Below, piece by piece: positions 20,241-62,239 of a stretch of 64,000 nt of DNA. The first letter of the stretch is position 1. Each line of letters begins with the position of its first letter. The notes beneath the pieces are model-generated. The model saw nothing but the letters and a program-made list of their open reading frames with translations, did not search any database and was not told the origin of the DNA. The stretch is taken from assembly GCA_965113315.1 (NCBI GenBank), contig OZ220368.1; one strand, given 5' to 3'. The stretch is from Podarcis vaucheri (taxonomy: Eukaryota). The translations under genes were made by a program, and so were the position numbers.

Positions 20241-20353
20241 TCAGACACGCATAAAATGGCTGTCGCCGCCCTGGGATGAATCAGACGAGAGGGACTTGGT
20301 CGGTGGAGTCGGGGAGGCTGGGGAGGTGGGAGGGCTCGGGGTGGCACACTGAG
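20241..20353 (-). CDS. PLEKHA6: PLEKHA6 stop-containing exon (AQCATPSPPTSPASPTPPTKSLSSDSSQGGDSHFMRV*); exon continues 8 nt past the stop to a donor at 20233|20232
   Basis: ttccag| acceptor; resembles human C-terminus VQCATPSPPTSPASP...YTMRV; TGA gccataaa|gtaagc. Confidence 0.94.
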
Positions 20354-32596: not shown

Positions 32597-32746
32597 CTGT
32601 CCCCTCTTCGCCTCGCTGCTTTGCTGCCAGGAAGGGGAGTTAGGATACGGCCAGAGGCGGCTTTCGGTAGGGAGCGGAGGGACAGTCGGAGGAGATTCCA
32701 AGGGCACATATGATTTGGGGAGGGGAGGTCGAGGTGGACCGGGCTC
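32597..32746 (-). CDS. PLEKHA6: PLEKHA6 proline-rich cassette exon, 150 nt (EPGPPRPPLPKSYVPLESPPTVPPLPTESRLWPYPNSPSWQQSSEAKRGQ)
   Basis: cttcag| and CAG|gtatca, phase 0/0; absent from the canonical human isoform as I recall it. Confidence 0.88.
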
Positions 32747-42279: not shown

Positions 42280-43043
42280 CTAAGTGAAGAGAAGAGTAAG
42301 GGGGGGGGGAATTTAAGCTGATGGTTAGGAAGCAATCTGGAACTCAGCAGCCTAGGGTATAGTTAAAATTCTTTTTCTGGCCTCAGGCACTCAGCCTTTC
42401 TGGGTCTTATTTCTAAAACCATCACTTGTTCTGTAGGACAAAGCATTATTGCAACTGAACTGGGTTGAAGGCTATAAAGTTCAGGTGCAAGCTGAGTTGG
42501 ACTTGCTCATCTGTCTGAATATCTAGACATGCCTTCTTCCACAGCATTCAGAGATGTAGGTCACTTGGTCACCCCCCCCTCCATAACCTCCACCACACAT
42601 ACAGTCTTGGAAAGAAGGAACCTGGTGTTGCATGAAGAGATTTTCCTGAAATTTCTTTCTGCCTGTAATAGGACTTCCTCTCCCACTTCTCTCCTCATGT
42701 GCCTGCTCCCAGACCTGCTCTGCAGGGTTGGGGGGAAAGCAGATTTGGGGAGGCAGACAGGGAGAAGAGAGGTACAGCAGAAGTCTTTGCACCAACAGGA
42801 TGACCTTGTTGGATACAGCCCTCTATGAGCAATACTCCTGCTACAAAGGCCACTTTTAGCATCTCTGCCTCCTATTTTGGGGAAACTGGAAACATTTGCC
42901 ACAAAAATAACAACCTCTTGATGATGCCCACAGCCTAGCAAATGCAATAAGGTTCCAGCCTCAAAAAGTCTCTGGAAAGTTGGCCAAAAATCAGAAAGCA
43001 GCTTGCCTATGGCATTAAGTGTGCTATGGTACACGCCCCTTAC

Positions 43044-43124
43044 CTTCTCTGCACGAAGTTGCTGCACCAGCCTCTCCTGTTCCCTCATCACCTTGTTTTG
43101 CTCACAGAGCTTTCCCAGGAGCTT
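43044..43124 (-). CDS. PLEKHA6: PLEKHA6 exon, 81 nt (KLLGKLCEQNKVMREQERLVQQLRAEK), coiled coil
   Basis: gaaag| acceptor, AAG|gtaagg donor; matches recalled human sequence. Confidence 0.95.
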
Positions 43125-43904
43125 CTTTCATGGAGGACAGAGAGAAAAGAAAGGCGAAATATAAGATTCATAGCAGAGTCTGGGGTGGGGAAGTGAATGT
43201 AGCCCTCTAAGTCTCTCTTGGGCTCTTCCCAGGTCTCATCCCCTCCTCATCCACACCCCTTCTGGCCCTGCCTTGCACTCTTCTTGTGTGTCCAACCCCC
43301 CCCCCCCCGAATGTGTCATTGCACTCTGATAAAGATTCTTGCAAGTGTGAATGGAAAAGAGAGAAAGATGCAAGTGTGTAGGAACTAGCCTGCTGTCCAA
43401 AGATGTGCATTCATTGCTCCACCCACCCATTGCCTTTGTTCTCACCCAGCACTGGCATGTGGCCCCCAGAAGGTTGCTCAGGAGCAAAAGTGGCCCTCGA
43501 GCTAGATAAAGGTCCTCCACCCTGGTTCACATAGCAGAAGGCATTCATCTGCTTTGAACAGATCTCAACCTGGCCTCTGGGTATTAGAGCCCCGGTGCTG
43601 GGGCTGCACAATCCGAGCAGGGCAGACTCACAAACAAGGATGCCAGCATGAAAACACAAACCCAGAGTACAATGGGTGAGGATGGGGCAGGAAAGGCGAC
43701 AGCCCGGGGTTGGTGAACGATGGCGACCACAAGTGCTTGGGACCTTGCAGCTCCCCTAGCAGAATAGATGCCTGTTTAATGATGTCAAGAGAAATGGAGA
43801 GGGAAGGCACAGCCTGCAAGGGGTGGAGGATGGAGAGGTGGCAGCGGAAGAGGGGATGGAAGGGGCAGACAGGCAAAAGGGAGGGAGGGAGGAGGTGCTC
43901 TTAC

Positions 43905-43973
43905 ATCTGTATCTTGCTCGCTTATCTTGTAGGTGTGCAGCGACTCTCTATAGGATTCAGGGAAATGAGACAC
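43905..43973 (-). CDS. PLEKHA6: PLEKHA6 exon, 69 nt (VSHFPESYRESLHTYKISEQDTD)
   Basis: tttgcag| and |gtaaga; similar to human VPPYPEVFRDSLHTYKLNEQDTD. Confidence 0.95.
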
Positions 43974-44645
43974 CTGCAAAAACAGGAACAAATCATTCCT
44001 GCTCTCTCCGCCTTTGAAGTTGACATGTCATGACAAGCCCCTGGGGAAATCCAAGGCTGCTTCTGCTTAGTGCGTAGGGGTGGGAAGCCCTCCATGTTTT
44101 CAGGTCCTGCAGCTCAAGCCCCAACCTTCTTTCACCAAGTCTTTTTTAATTAAGCAACATTTACTGGGTAGAATAACCGAAGGGAAAGGCACACACTGTC
44201 TAGCATTTCCATAACTGTGGTCTGGGGGTTTCTGCTTCTCGGTTCCCATGGATCTATCCAGCTTAGACTGCAGACTCCTCACTATCTTTCAAAATCAGCT
44301 GTCTTTCATCTCATCAAGGGAGGCAGCTCTTGCATACAATGTAGTGAGAGAATTGCTCTTTTCCTAACTGCATAGAATTGCTCTTTCTCCTATCCCCACA
44401 GATGTCAAGTTTATAACAAATATATATATAATGGCAGTTGCTCAGATTATGAGCAAATCAGCTATTCTACTATGCATGCATGTTAGACATGCAACCTCCA
44501 TTACATTACAGATCACCAAGCAATTACACATGGCCAGTCATACCATAAACAGCAGCTCACCTTCACAATCGCAGCAACTGCAATTGTGAATAGATTTAAA
44601 TATGTGACCTCTCCTCCCCCTCCCCCTGGCCTGCCCGGCACTCAC

Positions 44646-44675
44646 AGAATTCAGGATGATGATGGGGGAGTTCCC
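44646..44675 (-). CDS. PLEKHA6: Candidate PLEKHA6 30-nt microexon (GNSPIIILNS)
   Basis: catttag| acceptor, TCT|gtgagt donor, in frame in a phase-0 intron; CTAAC branch point upstream and two TGCATG downstream. Confidence 0.6.
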
Positions 44676-46058
44676 CTAAATGTGATAATTGCTATGGGCA
44701 AATGTTAGCTGCTCCATGTTATCTACTAACACAAACTTAGTTAATAGATATATGCAGAGCTGGTATATAGCACACAAGGAAGACCAGAAAGAATTTTTGC
44801 TGGGGTTTGTAGGCCTAAAAGCAGTGTTGGCTATCCATGTGCAGTGCAGATCTTTACATGCCAAACAGGGGCCAATGTCTAGGATGTTGCTATAAAAGGG
44901 TGGCTGATGAACAGGTAACCAGAGTCCTGTCCTCAGGAAACAGAGAGGCCAGGATAAGTGGGAGGCTGGATTAAAGAGAAACTTCAAGAAGAGCACGGAA
45001 GGATCCTGTATTTTTTTCAACTTGAGACTTTGCATTGATCCAGAATTAGAGTCAGATGCCACCACCCTCTGGTTTTATTCCCAGTTTATTTTCTGCTTTG
45101 AATTTCAAAGCTGCACGAGCCCAGGGTAATAGATTTCACAAGATGCAGCCCTGTAGTGTTGTGATTTGAGGTTCTTCACACAATGTCCAGCTCCCCTGCT
45201 TGTGAGCAACCACTATATTACAGACGGGCCAACTAATGCAGAGAGAAAGCCAGGTCAAAGGTGGCCGTTTTAGAGCATTGGCCTTTGGTGTGAATTCATA
45301 AAACCAAGACTCAGCTTTGCATCGTTTCCCTCTGGAACAGTGATATATCCAGCAGTACTTACCCAGAAGGGGTGTACGAGTATCACAGGAGGGCACTGAT
45401 TAGAATTGATGCAATCCAGCACAGAAGAAAAGCATCACGTCAGAACCAGAGTTTTATTATTATCAAGCAAGCTACCATGTTACAATAATACATCAAGAGA
45501 AAATAAGTTCTTAACTGCTAGTTGGCGGAACCTGATCAACAGGAACTCCTCTAACACAGAGAGTGGCGATATGAGAAAAATCTCTTCTGTGAGCATGATG
45601 TACCATGCTACAGATGTCACTCTCCATTTAAGTAGCACCTGTAACACTGTTATCACCTTCATTGTTAGGCAAAAGAGCTGTAGCTCAGTGGCAAGGCACA
45701 TGATTCTATGATTCTATATTTTGCCTGCAGAAGGTCCCAGGTTCATATGTGGTATCTCATATAGGACCGGGAAAGATCTTTGTCTGAGGCCCCTTCTGAA
45801 TCTTGTTGTTTCCAGATGGGATCAAATCTAAATGCTGACTCAAATCCTGCCCTATTTGAAATGTAACGGACAATGTTTTGGATTGCATCGTTTTCCTCAA
45901 AAATAATAATTGAGCAATAACTGCTGAGTTCATTAAATCACTAGCCATACCTTTTCCCCTATAAAGTAGAAAGTGGTTGCTGTTTTCTGTGTGTGTAGCT
46001 AAAAGCAATGGAAAGATGCCTGTTCAGAATCTAATTTGCCAGATGTCACGTGACCATA

Positions 46059-46097
<39 letters not shown>

Positions 46098-46418
46098 GGG
46101 GGGCTTGGTTTTGCTAGGCTACACAGCCTGCAAGAAAGTAGAATGGTAATTGTATCTGAGTATCTTCAGTGCCTGATTTTATAATTTTAAGATCACTGTT
46201 TTGCCCTGGGTGGTGCTAAAGCTCTGCCCAGTAAGTGACCACTTTTTATTACTTGGCACAATGCTGTAAGGACACAATTTTCCTGAGGAGAGGAACGGTA
46301 AGACTGAACAGATTCTATGAAACAACAAAGGGAAGCATAGATTTCATGTCAGTTCCAGCTAGCCCTTATCTGTGCTAATCACATATTTACATGTACCCTG
46401 ATAATCAGTATGTAAAGA

Positions 46419-46633
46419 CAGCGGTGCCAACTTGAATAAAATATTGGGAGCAGAGGTGGGTAAGCCCCGCCACACTTAATTGATCACCAGGTTTGGCACT
46501 CGCACACCACTTGAATGGCAATGCCCATCAACTGGAGGGGTGAGCGGACCCCTCAAATATTTTATTGGGTAAAAAAAAATATTATTGGGTGAGGGGCCGA
46601 AGGGACCTCGGTCCCTAGGAGTTGGCTCCTATG
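46419..46633. mobile_element. Probable non-autonomous DNA transposon
   Basis: Imperfect TIR CAGCGGTGCCAACT / AGTTGGCTCCTATG; near-TSD TGTAAAGA / TGTAAGAA. Confidence 0.5.
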
Positions 46634-48479
46634 TGTAAGAAGTGCAGGCCACTACTCTTCACGAGGCACCAATGTGAAACAGTGTTGGAACGTTCTCTCA
46701 GGGGGTGAAAACCATCCCCAGGTGGAGCTGGAGTTCGACAAATTCTAGCTATGTGGCACTTTTCTGTCAGAATATCCTTACTCTCTGGGGCAATTTGGCA
46801 CAGTGCTGTGAACAAAGCAGGAAATAGGAGGTACAATGTCTCATCAAACATGCCATTCTGTTTTCAGATTCAGGTAATTGCAATGCTGAACCTATCCCCA
46901 AACTTAGTCAAGGATCTCATCTAAGCAGTGATTATTAGCCTGTTCTGCTACAGTCTGCCTGGACAATATAAAGAGTAGCAAATGCATCAGAAAGTACATT
47001 TTGGTGATAAAGGTGACCAAATGATGACTGAAGCTTTAGAGATATAAATGGATGGTGGTTGGCTTGTTGCAACGGCAATGAGATACAGCTTTTATGATGA
47101 TATCACCGACTGTATTGCTTAATAGGCCAAATGAAGAAGCCCAATCCTGCCAGGAAGACCAAGTTTCTGAACACTGATAATCCTGACTACATGCAATTGA
47201 ACTGGTCCCAGTGGCGCTCACCACATGGCTCAGAGACATTATCTTCTCTTGCCAACATGGAGATCCTACAAAAATAGACACACCTAGCACTTGATATGGA
47301 AGGCTTTGACTGTTATTATTATTATCATTATTTATTTTATACCCCACCTTTATCCCTGACAGGACTCAAGGTGGCTTACAGATAAAAACAAGAATTGCTA
47401 AAAGTTAGAGGGGGGGGAACAATAATTAAAAAAACAGTTAGATAATTAATAGAATTAAAACTATATACATATATAAACTCTGTTTAAAACATACAAATAA
47501 TTACAAGTGGGTTCTGAAGCTCAATACTGATTTCTGAATTAAATTCCAGGGCTCAGTACTGATGACCCTTTAATAAAATTAAGCACAGAAGCTGATCATT
47601 CTGCTTCCCAGTGGACGTTCCCACTGTGGAGGGAGCATCCCCCTAGATCTGATGCACGGATATGTTCCTTGGGTAGGAGCCTAGATAGATCCTATTCTAT
47701 ATCCTAGAATATCCACATAGATTTTTATAGTAAACTATTTTGGGGCAAGGGTGTGGGCAAAAAGTAGAGGACTCTCTACCCTTAGCAAGAGATACCAATG
47801 CAAACTTAAGTGCCCCACTTCACAAATTCCAATGCTAAGCATCAGCGCTAAAAACAAGGTTTCCTTCAGCGTCTTGGCTCACATATGCCAATATTATGCT
47901 CACATATGCTATATTAAGCATATATTATGCTCACATATGCTAATATTAATACCTAACCATTTTCCAGGGGTGCACTACATTTTGCAAAAGTAATACCGGA
48001 AAGGAAAGAGGAAAATTTGTCTTCCCCCGCAAACCATTGATAGCCAGCCCCAAAAGCCATGACAAGCAGTTCGTAACTGAAAGTTTTAGGTTTTAACCTA
48101 AGCCATATATGCATTTATTATCTTATCTACAGAGAACAGAGAGAGAGAAAGGTTGGCATAAGGTGGCACAGAGCTGCTGATGCAGCTGAGATTAAGATCC
48201 ACAGATGTTGAGGGTCCCATCTACCTCCAACCTGTGGGTTAAGATGTGGATTCTGAGTGACTTAAAATGCTTCAGGGAATTAGGATCACTGTCAGGCAGG
48301 GGCAGAGGTGCCTTACTGGGCTCCATGTATAAATGCCGTTTGTAGAATGAGATGTTGAATGGGCATCTCACAAATGGATGTGGATGTGAGGTGCAGAAGG
48401 GTGACACTAGGGAATGGTTCTGCCATGCAAAAGCAGCTGGAATGGCATGGTTGATGGCAGAGCTGCTGTGATGTCTTAC

Positions 48480-48560
48480 TTGCATGTACAGTTGAGCCCT
48501 AGGGGAAGAGCTCTCCACCATTCTGTTCACCATACTGATCAAAGTCTCGCTCTCGCTCAT
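48480..48560 (-). CDS. PLEKHA6: PLEKHA6 cassette exon, 81 nt (MSESETLISMVNRMVESSSPRAQLYMQ)
   Basis: gccgcag| acceptor, CAA|gtaaga donor, phase 0/0. Confidence 0.9.
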
Positions 48561-49589
48561 CTGCGGCAGACAAGGAAGGAAAAACATCAAGATGCTAGCG
48601 GAGGCACAGCCACTGCAGCTCAGCCTTGAACACGTGTGACCGCTAACATATAAATCTGAAAAGACCTAAGACCTAGACCGGTGCCTCAGAACAGATGTCA
48701 CAAGGCAAAGACACACCTAAAGGAAGTCCACAGGACTGAAAAGCACATCAATGTTCAGAGTGATTACTGGGCTAAACAAGATGTGATGCTAGTTGCATGG
48801 CTGCATTTAATGTGCACTTGGTGGATCATGAAGAAAGGAAGCCTGAGTACCACTCCAGGGGTGCAAGGAGGAAGAATTGAGTCCTCCTCCTTCTTCCCTC
48901 CTAAGTTCCAAACAAAACATGGTTTTGATACACTCTCACAAACACTCATCTAACTACCATTTGCATTTGGAGGAATTCCTCCATGTACTTTTCTGGAGTT
49001 GCTCCTTTCCCAATGAAACTTTAAAAAGAAATGATTGGGGCAAAACATCACCCTACAGTTCCCAAAGAGGCATATCACATGGGTGTATCATATATAACAC
49101 CCTCTGCTTAGCCCATTCACATCACAGGGGAGTAGCAGTGCTGGGGAAATTATGTTTCATCCCAACCCCCATGCAATTTCCCTAATCACACACCCATCCA
49201 AAACTGTATTTTGGGACATAGTAATAACAGCTTGGTGGGGGGATTTAGATCAAAAGTTTAAACACCCCCTCCCTCAGTACTACTGCTCCTACCAAACAGC
49301 CACCCACAAATGATTTAAAGGGAGATATTTTATATATAGATCAGGAAATCTGATCATGGATCTCCCACGTCATATCAGTTTCAGCCTTTAACAATAGGAT
49401 GACGGATGGGGTGGAGCTGTACTTACAAGATTTACCTTGTTGATACAAAAGACAGACTTTGAGTGAAGATATGTTTGGACCTCCCTCTGCCTGCTTTGAA
49501 ATCCCAATGAGGCTTAGTACCTCACTTCAGGTCCCACCAGACATACATACTGCACATTCATGATGATTTGCGCTCCTAAGAGCACAAAT

Positions 49590-49810
49590 GAGAGCCAGTG
49601 TGGCGTGGTGGTTAAGGTGTTGGACCAGGACCTGGGAGAACAGGGTTCAAATCCCCCTGGCCATGAAGCTCACTGGGAGACCTTGGGCCAGTTACTCATT
49701 CTCAGCCTCATCTACCTTGCAGGGTGCTGTGAGGATAAAAGGAAGAGGAGTACTATATACACCACCTTGAGTTTCTTGGAGGAAAGGCGGGATGCAAATG
49801 TAATGAATAA
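49590..49810 (+). mobile_element. Old MIR-like tRNA-derived SINE
   Basis: GAGAGCCAGTGTGGCGTGGTGGTTAAG...GGTTCAAATCCCC. Confidence 0.65.
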
Positions 49811-50080
49811 GCAAAATCATAATGATACCAGGGCTGTCCCACTTTCAACACTGTTTGTGCCTGCAGAAGTGTTGTGGCCGTCCACCTGCATCATTTCTGA
49901 TCAGTGCATATGCTGTAATTTCCCACTGAAATCCTGCGACTTGTTATACAACAAACACCCCGGTTCATTTTCCTTCTGCTTTTGTTGCCCTATAGCTCTT
50001 CCAGATAGCAATTAAGTGGTAGCACGGGGGCAGCGTCAAAGAACAAATGAAAGCAGAATAAATTCATCGCTAATGCACTA

Positions 50081-50432
50081 GGGACGCAGGTGGCACTGTG
50101 GGTTAAACCACAGAGCCTAGGACTTGCCAATCAGAAGGTTGGCGGTTTGAATCCCCGCGATGGGGTGAGCTCCCGTTGCTCGGTCCCAGCTCCTGCCAAC
50201 CTAGCAGTTCGAAAGCACGTCAAAGGCGCAAGTAGATAAATAGGTACCGCTCCGGCGGGAAGGTAAACGGCATTTCCGTGCGCTGCTCTGGTTTGCCAGA
50301 AGCGGCTTAGTCATGCTGGCCACATGACCCGGAAGCTGTACGCCGGCTCCCTTGGCCAAAAAAGCGAGATGAGCACCGCAACCCCAGAGTCGGTCACGAC
50401 TGGACCTAATGGTCAGGGATCCCTTTACCTTT
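50081..50432 (+). mobile_element. Full-length Sauria SINE
   Basis: tRNA-like head GGGACGCAGGTGGC, core GTCATGCTGGCCACATGACC, ACCTTT tail; TSD TAATGCACTA at 50071-50080 and 50433-50442. Confidence 0.9.
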
Positions 50433-52570
50433 TAATGCACTATTATTGTGTTGAGAACGCTTTGCAGAATGCACCTACAAAAAGACCACCAGCTTGGGGG
50501 GGGGGGGGGCTTACTCAGCAAACTGCTACTTCTGCTTATTAAACAGGAGCACTTTCTTTGATGACCAGAGGCCCCTCCTCTTCTTTCTTCCCCAGACATG
50601 CGGGGCTAGTTGAGCCAGTCTCTATAAGCCCCTCTAGCTCCTGGTGGGAATCTGCTTTGCTCCCTTTTTCAGGATTTTAGGACTGGCAGAGGAGGATTCA
50701 TAGTTTCCTTATTAGGATACACTTGAAGTGGAGGGATGGGTTTTATCCAATGGAGGCTGGTGCCCATTAGGACTAGACAAGGAGACCAACAGTAGGTGCA
50801 GCCAGAGCCACCAGCAGGCAGAGCCAGCTAATTGGTGATGCTCAAGCTAAGGAGGAGGCAGCTGATCCAATGGACCGGCCTTCGCCTGAGATTTGGTCCA
50901 TGCACAAAATCTCACTGGTTGTCGTATCTGGGCTTGATAATAAATCCCTCCCTTCAGGGCTACTACACATTAGCTAATGATCCAGGGTTTGTTTGGTTTT
51001 CGTGCCTTTGTTTGCTTGAATCATCTGGAGCTGTTTGATTTGAAGAGTTCCTTCCACTGTGCATCCCCTTCATGCTCAGAGCACACTGTAGCCTAGGTTA
51101 CACAGATTGATTCTGGAAGAAGGGGGGAAGAAGCAATGTGTGCCTGGAACTACTGTGTGTGTGTGTGTGTGTGTGTGATCTTGTAATTCCTTCCAACTCC
51201 ATAAGGTTTTATGGAATGGAGTAATAATAATAAAACAGTTGCTTAAACAAAAATCCCAAGAGTCAGATGATATTTGGCTGACATACTTCTCCATTAGTCA
51301 AGTGAAGCTGATGGTGCTATATCTCTCTCTAAACACACGCACACAAAATGCACTTTCAAACAGAAGGCACCAGGGCATAACAAACAAATAGGGCTCTGAT
51401 GTTGCATTTCATTGTGCTGTTTTAAATCGGTCTTTCTCTGTGGGTCAGAAGGGGAACAGAAAGAAATGGAAAGCCTTGAAGAATCCCTTTTTATAGGGAG
51501 AAAAGCCTACTATCAACAACGGCTGCCCAACCCAGAGCACTTTTAAGTGCCGCCTCCTCGTCAGTGGCTTCAGTCCAACACAGACACAAGCACATCTTCA
51601 TGATTACTCTACTGATGGGGGAATTACTGACTCCAAAGCTGTAATGAGATTGTCTCTGGAGCAGGCTTGCTTATTGAAATGCAGACTTTTTCAGGCCAGC
51701 ATCAGACATCCATCAGCACTTGCAATGAGATTTCAGTTTTTTTATATAAAAAAAATCCAGCTTAATCTCCTCTGTTGATGTTTTCCCAAAAGGGGTTTCT
51801 TTCCCTGTTTCTCTAGGTCAGCAAGTGTCCCTTAACATGACAAAATGGGCATGAAAGATTGTTTCAGCTTAAGGCAAAGCTTGTGGGAAAGGCTGTTTGG
51901 GTTAGTTGCATTTGAATTATCACAGTATACTGAGCTGCTTTATATTCATGGGTTTGTTGTTTTTTAACAAAACAATTATGGTAAAAACTGGTTTTATATT
52001 ATTGATTTCTGCCCCCGCCGCACACATTTCATATGCACACTGAACCATTCTCTCTGGTTAGCACACCTTTACATTCTTAAACATTCTTACACTCAAAATA
52101 CATATATGTTGGATATCTGATGCTTAGTTATTCAATACCTCATATTAATCATCTGTTTTGTCCCTGTTTTTTAAACATGAAGAAGTACCTGACCTGAATG
52201 ATTTTATTTTTATTTTTTTAAAAAACACCCTGGTCTGTTCTTTCCCAAACTGTAACCCAATTTTGACTATCCAAAAGTTGGATAAGGTTAAATGAGTCAG
52301 ATAGCTGAGTTTGTACGCAATGCCATATACCAGATTTCCCCAACCTGCTGCTCTTCAGCTGGTTTGGACTACAACTCCCATTCAGCCCCAGCCAAAACAT
52401 CTGCAGAGCACCCGGTTGGGAAGGCTCCATATGCAAACTTGATATATTCACAGACCCATACAAATGATCTCATATTCCAACAAGTGAAATTTCACAAAAA
52501 CTCATGGGCTCACTTCCACTCATGGACAAACTTTTATCAGTCTCCCAAACTGTTTCATAGGCAAAAGGTA

Positions 52571-52573
52571 ATT

Positions 52574-52604
<31 letters not shown>

Positions 52605-52922
52605 CCTGCCCACTCTGGGCGGCTTCCAACCGAATATTAGCATCAGACATTTAAAATTTTCCTAAACAGGGCCACCTTCAGTTGTCTTTTAAAAGTAAAA
52701 TAGTTGTTTATTGCCTTGACATCTGTTGGGAGGGCGTTCCACAGGGCAGGCGCCACTATCGAGAAGGCCCTCTGCCTGGTTCCCGGTAACCTCAATTCTC
52801 GCAGCGAAGGAATCACCAGAAGGCCCTTGGCACTGGACCTCAGTGTCCAGGCTGGAAGATGGGGGTGGAGACGCTCCCTCAGGTATACAGGACCAAGGCT
52901 GTTTAGGGCTTCAAAGGTCATC
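52571..52922 (-). mobile_element. L2 LINE 3' end with (TAAA)n tail
   Basis: ALNSLGPVYLRERL...TLRSS...RAFSIVAPALWNALP...FKRQLK; (ATTT)n at 52575-52604. Confidence 0.85.
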
Positions 52923-53362
52923 ACCTTTAAAGGTTTCATGTGGACCTTCACTTGCCTTACTCCCAAGGAACCCATGGAATCTGAAAGCACCAGGGTCACA
53001 TCCTCCCCCCCCCAGTCTGTGCCATCTGCACCTTTTCACCTGATCAGCCAGACTCTTGTTGGGAACAGACATGAAGAAAAGATCAGATAGTTTGCCTCCC
53101 TCCCCTTCTACCTTCTTTATCTAATCCTATGATCCTGCAACAAGTATGCAGGTAGAAAGCCAGCAGGGATGTTCAGAATGTCATACATGCAACTATGTGC
53201 ATGTTGGACAGAGATCATGGGTGTGCGCTCAGTGCAAGGACTTCCTGGTCCTCAGGGAACAAGTATGTTCCCTTTAGGTCCCAGTATCTGACCTGAGAGA
53301 GCCAGAGTGGTTGGTAGACGTAATAATGGCATTCCACTCACACAGTGCCATCTCTTCCATTA

Positions 53363-53698
53363 CAGTGGTGCCCCGCAAGACGAATGCCTCGCAAGACGGA
53401 AAACCCGCTAGACGAAAGGGTTTTCTGTTTTTGAGCTGCTTCGCAAGACGATTTTCCCTATGGGCTTGCTTTGCAAGACGAAACGTCTTGCAAGTGTTCC
53501 GATTTTTTTTCGCTTCCCCCCCTTTTTCTAAGCCGCTAATAGCCTTTTAGCCGCTAATCTGCTAAGCCTTTAATAGCCGCTAAACTGCTAATAGCGCTAA
53601 TCTGCTAAGCCGCTAATAGGGTTGCTTCGCAAGACGAAGAAACCGCTAGATGAAGAGACTCGCGGAACGGATTAATTTCGTCTTGCGAGGCACCACTG
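53363..53698. mobile_element. Young Tc1/mariner-type MITE with internal AGCCGCTAA and GCAAGACGA repeats
   Basis: 22-bp TIR CAGTGGTGCCYCGCAAGACGAA, TA on both sides, CpGs retained. Confidence 0.88.
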
Positions 53699-54059
53699 TA
53701 TAATGGAGAATCATGGTCTTGGGGAAGAAAAGCTTCAATCTGAGGAAGAGGCAAATGATCGTTGAAGAGGGACACATTCTTTGTGGGACTAACAGTCATC
53801 CTATCATATGGAGGACACTTTTCTGGGGGTCTCTTGTTAGTGGCAGTTTTTATCACTGGCCTCATAGGCAATTGAGTTTGTGATGGGCATGTGGACCACA
53901 CAGTAACTTGTCTGCCTGTCACACGTAATCTGGATGCTGGATATACACTAAGGAGAAATGTTATTATGTGATCCTGGAAGAGAAATTTGGGTTGCTAGGT
54001 GAGAGGCCAGGACTTACAAGGAAGCTTTCTCTGAAATGCTGCCCATTCCATTTTGGTGC

Positions 54060-54350
54060 TGGAAAAAACTCTCCTATGAGGAAAAGTTACATAATTGGAG
54101 GATTTTTTAGTTTAGAAAAAAAAAATTGAGTAACAGGAAGAGACAGAAGAGTATAAAACTTAATAGTGTGGACAGAGAGAAGGCTTTTTTTTGCTGCCTC
54201 TCTCATCATTCTTGAACCTGGGAAAGGTCAATGAAGCAGAATGCTAGAAGATCCAGGACACACCAAAGTACTTCTTCACACAGCTCACAGTTAAACTATG
54301 GGGTTTACTGCCACAATATGTTGTAATGGACTGACTTAGATGGCTTAGGC
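54060..54350 (+). mobile_element. Decayed CR1 3' fragment
   Basis: CCTATGAGGAAA..TTTAGTTTAGAAAA..TACTTCTTCACACAG..GTTAAACTATGG motifs. Confidence 0.65.
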
Positions 54351-55696
54351 AAAGTCTAATGCCCCATATGCACCATACACTTAAAGCCACATCAATCACT
54401 TTAAACAGCCATGGGGGTCCCCATAGGAGACTCCAATTTCCCTCGTGGATCTACAGTTCTCAGAGTGGCTTCACAGTCATCCAGTGGCACACCTTGACAA
54501 TGCACACTTAACAATGACCAATGAACCAAATACAAAAAGAAATATCTACTGCTCAACAGTAATGCAGGCATTTTTCTGTCATTATCAATTTCTTTGATTG
54601 ATACTCATCTTCCCATATCCACATTTATAAAAATCATACCTGATAGTAAAGAAAAATATTCTGTATTGTCTCGGATTCTCATTACTTTCAAAGGGTGAGT
54701 TTAATATTCTGTAGATGCCACAAAGCATAATTTTCAATACCATTTTTCTAAGGTTACTCCTTCAGTATTTATCCAATACTAAGAAATATTTAGTCTTCTG
54801 CCACCAACATGAAATGCATTAGCTCTTTGGATACAAGATCCATATTTGAATGAAAGCCACCTGCTGCTTTTATTTCCCATGAAGCCCTAGGGCCATACGC
54901 TACATCAGGCACTCCATGTCACTTTAGGAAATTTGCACACACACACACAGGCAACTTCCCAGATCAAGCCACTGTCACCAGATAAGCCAGCAGCTGGGGG
55001 AACATGAAGGCAAGATGGCCAGAGTGAGAGGGAACGAAGCAGGCATTGGTGCCAATGGGTCTTGCCAGCAACTGCACGAGAGCATTGGGTACTGATGTGA
55101 CAGCGCTGAGTGTTGTATTTAAAATAACCCTGCTTGGGATGGAATGAATCAGTGGGCAGAGTGCAAACTAAATTTAAAATACAGTTCACATTAAAGAAAA
55201 CCAAACCCACACATAGGTTGCCACCCAGAGTTCTAGGGTCATGATTACTCTCTTATCAACAGAGTTTATTCCTGCCCTAAATCTTGCTTACATCCTGCAG
55301 ACTAGTGTGGAACATTGCACAGAAATCCAACAACAATCACCAAATACGGCAGTAATAACAGCTGCAATTGCAGCACAGCAGAATCCATAGATGTCCAAGC
55401 AAGCAAAGCAGCTGTCCCTCCCCAATTCACCCCTACACACACACACACACACACACGAACAAGTGTGTCACTGTCCACAAGAAAGATGAAAGGAACAAAC
55501 CACATCGGCCCGCTAGTGCTGCCGCAATGCCAAGAGAAGGAGAGGGACAGATGTTGGGGAGGAGGAAGGGTAAAGGGGAGAGGGAAAGGCAACACTGACC
55601 TGACAGCACGGCTGGGGAGGGGGCAGCGGGGGGTTGCAGGACAAGAGGCAAAAATGTGGTGGGAGCAGTGAGAGGGAGACAGCCAGCTTGGCCTAC

Positions 55697-61728: not shown

Positions 61729-62239
61729 CTTTGGTGAACTGACCGATCGCCTCATCATGTATGTCGTCGGCTCTGCATAAATCTCCTCACTCCGGGGAGG
61801 CACTCTTTCAAAGCGGGCGCTCGGAGACCTGACAGGGGAGTACACTCTGGCTCGGGTGTAGGAGCCTTGGCTCGGCGAGCGGGGGACCGACCGGGAGCGA
61901 GGCTGGAGGGACATCCTGCGCAAGGAGCCTGAGGCGGCATCCATTTCGTCATAGTACACGGGTGGCCGGGTCGGGCCTGACATCCAGATGGGAACGTCCT
62001 GCCTGCCGTAGCCTGGCTGCTCTTTCCAGTCCCGCAGCTGGTAGGAGCCGCTGTTGCGGAAGGAGTGGCGCTTGTCGTCGACAGTCCACTGAGGGCTCAC
62101 ACGCTCAAAGGCAGGCATAGAGCAGATGCTGTCAGGACGCACCCCAGGAGGGTAGTATTGGTAATCTTCAGAGTACTGAGGTGAGTAGGGGGGATAGTAG
62201 TCAGGGACTCTTCGGGACATCGGGTAGAACCTGGTGGGG
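61729..62239 (-). CDS. PLEKHA6: PLEKHA6 coding exon, 511 nt (PTRFYPMSRRVPDYY...YMMRRSVSSPK); upstream exons lie outside the window
   Basis: Translation closely matches recalled human PLEKHA6 (YQYYPPGVRP.SICSMP, SLQPRS.SVPRSPSQGSY); acceptor catctag| and donor AAG|gtaacc. Confidence 0.96.

Follow-up and report, generated by a model that had tools for sequence, protein, structure and literature searches.

Candidate paired in-frame microexons in a single intron of PLEKHA6 in the lizard Podarcis vaucheri

Does the intron between two optional exons of PLEKHA6 in Podarcis vaucheri hold a microexon, and if so, which stretch of the intron is it? The question was raised by a sequence-only reading of a 64,000-nt piece of contig OZ220368.1 (assembly GCA_965113315.1; hereafter the window), which had proposed a 30-nt microexon encoding GNSPIIILNS under neural or muscle-type control. 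PLEKHA6 runs along the minus strand, and its 3' half falls within the window; homologous proteins place its exons down to about position 20244. The product of the exon at 61729-62229 is 99 to 100% identical to PLEKHA6-named proteins of Podarcis, Lacerta, and Zootoca. Between this large exon and the coiled-coil domain lie phase-0 cassettes of 87, 54, and 81 nt, which are combined in many ways. Two cassettes of human PLEKHA6 are given as confirmed in the available part of PMC1904267 (Table 3). Table 1 lists the features of the intron and its flanking exons. The proposal that a 30-nt exon would keep the frame between these two flanking exons is borne out by the homologous proteins, which support both exons and their phase.

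Table 1. Features in and around the PLEKHA6 intron (positions in the window)
Feature	Position	Strand	Details
81-nt cassette exon, upstream neighbour	48480-48560	-	Phase 0; supported by homologous proteins
33-nt exon acceptor region	45396-45443	-	CTGAC at 45439-45443 (-48); pyrimidine run at 45423-45432; TGC at -39, -26, and -18; putative function
33-nt in-frame microexon	45363-45395	-	CAG, CPPVILVHPFW, GTAAGT; probably orthologous to the 11-residue insert of Anolis
30-nt candidate acceptor region	44676-44708	-	CTAAC at 44704-44708; TGC at 44698-44700; competing AG at 44692-44693; no pyrimidine tract
30-nt candidate microexon	44646-44675	-	TAG, GNSPIIILNS, GTGAGT; in frame
G-runs past the weak donor of the 30-nt candidate	44616-44636	-	13 G in runs of at least 3; may act as an intronic enhancer or pair with the exon C-run
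TGCATG-CTAAC-TGCATG cluster	44475-44493	-	RBFOX motif pair flanking a QKI-like half site; between +153 and +171 relative to the donor of the 30-nt candidate
69-nt exon, downstream neighbour	43905-43973	-	Phase 0; supported by homologous proteins; leads into the TBCA coiled-coil domain (PF25541)

To look for microexons at this junction, we fetched 434 proteins, of which 151 include the 81-nt exon together with the 69-nt exon. The two exons are joined directly in 148 of these isoforms, and the other three carry an insert. The three are the Anolis carolinensis RefSeq isoforms X6, X7, and X11 of PLEKHA6 (XP_062834589.1, XP_062834590.1, and XP_062834595.1), in which the peptide SSPVIFIHPSW stands exactly between the two exons. 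When this insert was compared with all 127,936 six-frame positions of the window, the best match was the 33-nt stretch at 45363-45395, with a score of 42 against 32 for the next position, and none of 20,000 random peptides reached that score. The two share the same junction, and 6 of 9 aligned residues are identical. At the protein level, at which alone they were compared, the Anolis insert thus corresponds to the 33-nt exon and not to the 30-nt candidate. A microexon at this junction is therefore supported, but the best-supported one is a 33-nt exon 717 nt upstream of the 30-nt candidate that the earlier proposal had missed.

The sequence around the 33-nt exon also has the order of elements expected of SRRM3/4-type microexons: a branch point, a pyrimidine tract set back from the acceptor (13 of 15 pyrimidines at -37), UGC, and AG, with no other AG for 74 nt. 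We consider it very probable that the 33-nt exon is a real microexon, a judgment that draws on one other species and 3 of 151 isoforms. If it is the sole real one, it adds routine annotation to a gene in which cassettes are already known.

We then examined the splice sites of the 30-nt candidate. The stretch is preceded by TTTAG, followed by GTGAGT, and free of stop codons, as had been proposed, and it has the basic properties of a cassette microexon in being short and in frame with both AG and GT present. The branch-point motif CTAAC at 44704-44708 and the two TGCATG motifs at 44488-44493 and 44475-44480 are likewise where they had been placed. The TGC that was said to lie just upstream of the acceptor is present, but it is the sole one and stands 25 nt before the exon, 3 nt past the branch-point motif. 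The acceptor has no polypyrimidine tract (53% pyrimidine), and the best pyrimidine window is found at -115, beyond the branch-point motif. Use of the competing AG between branch point and acceptor would give an exon of 46 nt that is out of frame. On a splice-site matrix built from the 17 protein-supported exons of PLEKHA6, the donor scores -1.9 and the acceptor -2.5, each lower than in all 17 exons, and 541 of 1,597 in-frame AG..GT stretches of 9-51 nt equal or beat the candidate at both sites. On the other hand, the candidate's full layout (YAG, GTRAG, branch point, TGC, and two TGCATG) is present at a single place along 42.5 kb of sense strand and nowhere on the antisense strand; 25 Markov simulations gave an expectation of 0.04 per 42.5 kb, a figure that is optimistic because the criteria were drawn around the candidate itself.

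The regulatory part of the proposal fared unevenly. Its RBFOX half fits the layout. The TGCATG motifs stand at +153 and +166 from the donor, with the CTAAC half site at +160, so that the weak donor has UGCAUG within 300 nt downstream; and the pair is one of 2 within 30 nt among 30 sense-strand TGCATG sites in 42.5 kb. A full QKI motif, ACUAA(C), was not found downstream of the candidate, and the sole ACTAA lies upstream at -66. The SRRM3/4 half fits poorly. Although UGC between the branch point and AG is present (TGC at -25), the donor is not strong and there is no strong pyrimidine tract at a distance from the AG, and the 33-nt exon is a better fit to the SRRM3/4-type layout than the 30-nt candidate. 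No TGCATG was found within 350 nt of the 33-nt exon. The TGCATG cluster could instead serve one of its other neighbours: the 33-nt exon, which lies 870 nt upstream of it, or the 69-nt exon, which lies 502 nt downstream.

Intronic G-runs are known to help weak donors. Past the donor of the 30-nt candidate, the count of G in such runs exceeds that of all 17 annotated donors (maximum, 11), and 1.2% of 20,000 random positions have as many. The C-run of the exon is predicted to pair with these G-runs, and folding of 44400-44760 gave z-scores of -3.0 and -3.4, to which we give little weight because a z-score of -3 was also attained in 2 of 47 control windows and because the folded segment was chosen after the fact. 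A 13-bp hairpin is also predicted at 44563-44597 (minus strand), 50-80 nt past the donor. Rfam returned no match to a known RNA family. Of the intron's 23 inverted repeats, none links the splice sites of one exon to those of the other.

To further explore the relation between the two stretches, we compared their peptides and codons. When 152 AG..GT candidates in the intron are ranked as distinct exons by their match to the Anolis insert, the 30-nt candidate comes second. The score of its peptide against that insert (22) is reached by 0.46% of 20,000 random window peptides, and its score against the peptide of the 33-nt exon (18) is reached by 2.8% of random peptides. In the codon alignment of the two exons, 8 of 9 second positions are shared, whereas the first and the third positions agree at only 2 of 9 each; 8 shared second positions were reached by 105 of 50,000 random stretches (p about 0.002). 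Such a pattern is as expected for old homologues that would have been under selection at the protein level. The likeness counts because the 30-nt candidate had been picked from regulatory motifs alone, when its neighbour was not known. These peptide and codon tests overlap and are not independent, and the ATC-ATC-ATC repeat inflates the scores. The DNA flanking the two exons shows no more similarity than random stretches do: at best, 67 of 600 such stretches scored as high, and a separate comparison gave p 0.27. A duplication visible in the DNA was considered and rejected, as the 15-nt repeat found at matching spacing fails the alignment nulls. An origin of either exon from a repeat finds no support: the 30-nt region and the 33-nt region each have a single match in the genome.

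The peptide of the 30-nt candidate was found neither in the 151 isoforms with both flanks nor in any of the 434 fetched proteins, and neither microexon occurs in 32 lacertid proteins. The clusters are represented by 15 listed members of 113 (main lacertid cluster) and 15 of 77 (iguanian cluster), and absence from the isoforms is weak evidence because the members listed were few. When the Anolis insert with its flanks was used as a query, none of 171 full-length candidates proved to be a further insert-bearing protein, nor did any of the 24 shorter matches inspected, out of 27. The ESM Atlas held no usable match for the insert-bearing isoforms. In a metagenome scan with a conserved exon, 587 stretches matched, and none was confirmed as the PLEKHA6 locus.

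In addition, four raw RNA runs from another organism were aligned over 43000-55600. Since depth was 0 on the bins of both the 81-nt and the 69-nt exon, these runs are no evidence on inclusion either way. Reads in the bin 44263-44683 were rejected as junctions, as 70 and 51 reads match only about 22 nt near 44484 with their remainder on a repeat. Two intronic stretches, at about 49736-50577 and at 52683-53945, attracted hundreds to thousands of divergent reads on both strands, as expected of interspersed repeats.

The possibility that the 30-nt stretch is a real, RBFOX-type twin of the 33-nt exon is, in our judgment, evenly balanced. According to this model, an old duplication probably gave rise to a pair of optional microexons in one PLEKHA6 intron, each of which would add a similar short hydrophobic peptide. 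SRRM3/4 would activate the 33-nt exon by way of the TGC-rich acceptor of that exon. In the 30-nt exon, splice sites too weak for default use would confine inclusion to a few tissues, in which RBFOX bound downstream, helped by QKI or hnRNP H/F, would turn the exon on. Alternatively, the 30-nt stretch may be a pseudo-exon that arose by chance, with the 33-nt exon alone being real and the TGCATG cluster either regulating that exon or repressing the 69-nt exon. The splice sites, the weakest in the gene and equalled by so many other stretches, speak for this alternative, as does the failure to find the peptide in the fetched proteins. Moreover, the 69-nt exon is skipped in 4 fetched isoforms, and RBFOX bound upstream of an exon represses it, according to the available text of PMC12064062. 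The alternative does not account for the resemblance of a blindly picked candidate to the peptide of its neighbour (p about 0.002-0.03), nor for a motif cluster and G-runs placed where they would serve the donor of the candidate, and we regard it as somewhat unlikely.

A decayed duplicate of the 33-nt exon, formerly spliced and now silent or used at noise level, would combine peptide likeness with very weak splice sites and no annotation. However, a dead copy should lose its second codon positions as fast as its third positions, which is at odds with the 8 of 9 and 2 of 9 observed, and the frame, the AG, and the GT are all intact; we find this explanation distinctly unlikely. The neural reading in the original proposal, if taken to mean that SRRM3/4 drives the 30-nt exon on its own and that the neighbouring 33-nt exon bears no relation to it, appears highly improbable. 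The TGC between the branch-point motif and the AG agrees with it, and mouse Plekha6 is an Srrm4 target in the available part of PMC3464207. The dependent mouse exon, however, is one of 150 nt (Table S2 row in that source), which by eye matches the cassette at 32597-32746 and not the 30-nt candidate, so that PMC3464207, as far as it was available, covers neither microexon. The candidate also has neither the strong donor nor the displaced pyrimidine tract of such microexons as described in the available part of 10.1101/2024.09.17.613571.

We next considered what the peptides might do. All three, through PIIILN in the 30-nt candidate, PVILVH in the 33-nt exon, and PVIFIH in Anolis, fit the loose PxIxIT pattern of calcineurin-docking motifs, P[^PG][ILVF][^PG][ILVF][^PG], which in the accessible part of its source (10.1101/632547) has 21,791 human matches, nearly all of them non-binders; a fit to this pattern therefore counts for little as evidence. 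Among 35 in-frame YAG/GTRAG candidates in the 42.5 kb of sense strand, the two microexons are the only ones that fit, and none of 22 fits on the antisense strand. The count alone is not striking, since about 0.55 fitting candidates are expected per 42.5 kb, and the pattern was noticed after both peptides were known; the presence of both in one 4.5-kb intron, for which 0.058 are expected, is more so. In 6 PLEKHA6 proteins, the only PxIxIT match outside the inserts falls inside the PH domain.

The insertion point lies at residues 451-473, between a helix and the coiled coil, where pLDDT is below 50 in a model of the insert-free isoform that is weak as a whole (mean pLDDT, 48.7). A flexible linker is tentatively predicted at this site; calcineurin PxIxIT motifs lie in accessible disordered regions. 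The peptides differ from those motifs at position 6, which is H or N here and not T, and N at this position lowers calcineurin binding in PVIVIN (PMC6728138, available in part). The proposed model would have the added peptide, in the linker before the TBCA coiled coil, act as a protein-docking motif with calcineurin as its best-guess partner. Given real exons, calcineurin docking by the added peptide is a guess that seems doubtful to us. A fuller version, in which each twin is solely a calcineurin PxIxIT site, with SRRM3/4 controlling one and RBFOX/QKI the other, so that different docking strengths would set the calcium coupling of a junctional scaffold in neurons and in muscle, is in our estimate quite improbable.

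Several known systems offer comparisons. The 33-nt muscle microexon of Snap23 has been shown experimentally to be regulated by RBFOX2, QKI, and MBNL (PMC12064062, available in part), and like the 30-nt candidate it is in frame and has a weak donor followed within 300 nt by a pair of RBFOX motifs. It differs in having two full QKI motifs on the downstream side, where the candidate has the CTAAC half site only. Among SRRM3/4-dependent microexons, the available text of 10.1101/2024.09.17.613571 describes the order branch point, pyrimidine tract, UGC, and AG; the 33-nt exon has this full layout, and the 30-nt candidate has UGC only. Tandem duplicated exon substitutions, as treated in the parts of PMC9741552 available, also involve consecutive exons with similar peptides of at least 7 residues. 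The homology in the present case is weak and seen at the protein level only, and mutual exclusion is not forced, as both exons keep the frame and are separated by about 650 nt.

If both exons are real, they would be tandem microexons whose peptide pattern was kept as their regulatory layouts drifted apart, and a compact case of splicing programmes recruiting duplicated exons. If the peptides dock calcineurin, a single microexon would switch in a whole docking motif, and PLEKHA6 would gain a testable link to calcium signalling. In the available portions of the literature searched, we found no report of a PLEKHA6 microexon, of a link between PLEKHA6 and calcineurin, or of such an alternatively spliced PxIxIT exon. 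The name Plekha6 was not found in the accessible supplements of PMC7821500, PMC12868881, and PMC12626424 or in the searched supplement files of PMC4317164, PMC9303857, and PMC9741552, and no PLEKHA gene is named in the available text and one supplement of PMC9741552. Since tables keyed by coordinates escape a search by name, existing catalogues may already contain a counterpart from human or mouse. The mentions of PLEKHA6 in the available parts of PMC12143990 and PMC4222953 concern other types of event.

Other observations were made along the PLEKHA6 locus. The lizard 150-nt cassette (32597-32746, minus strand) has its nearest TGC at -42. An alternative donor, GTCAGT, lies 15 nt inside the large exon (61729-61743, minus strand) and would account for isoforms missing five residues at the end of that exon. 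At about 50850-50930 (minus strand), adjoining a repeat, there is a weak match (score 39, containing a stop) to a 30-residue cassette that, among the fetched proteins, was seen only in turtle isoforms; the match may be due to chance or to a repeat-derived exon. Finally, a paralogue, which we take to be PLEKHA5-like, carries an optional 12-residue insert at the homologous junction in a comparison of two of its proteins (P0297 and P0311). The insert is unrelated in sequence and has no PxIxIT pattern, and its position suggests that the junction is an old hotspot for short cassettes.
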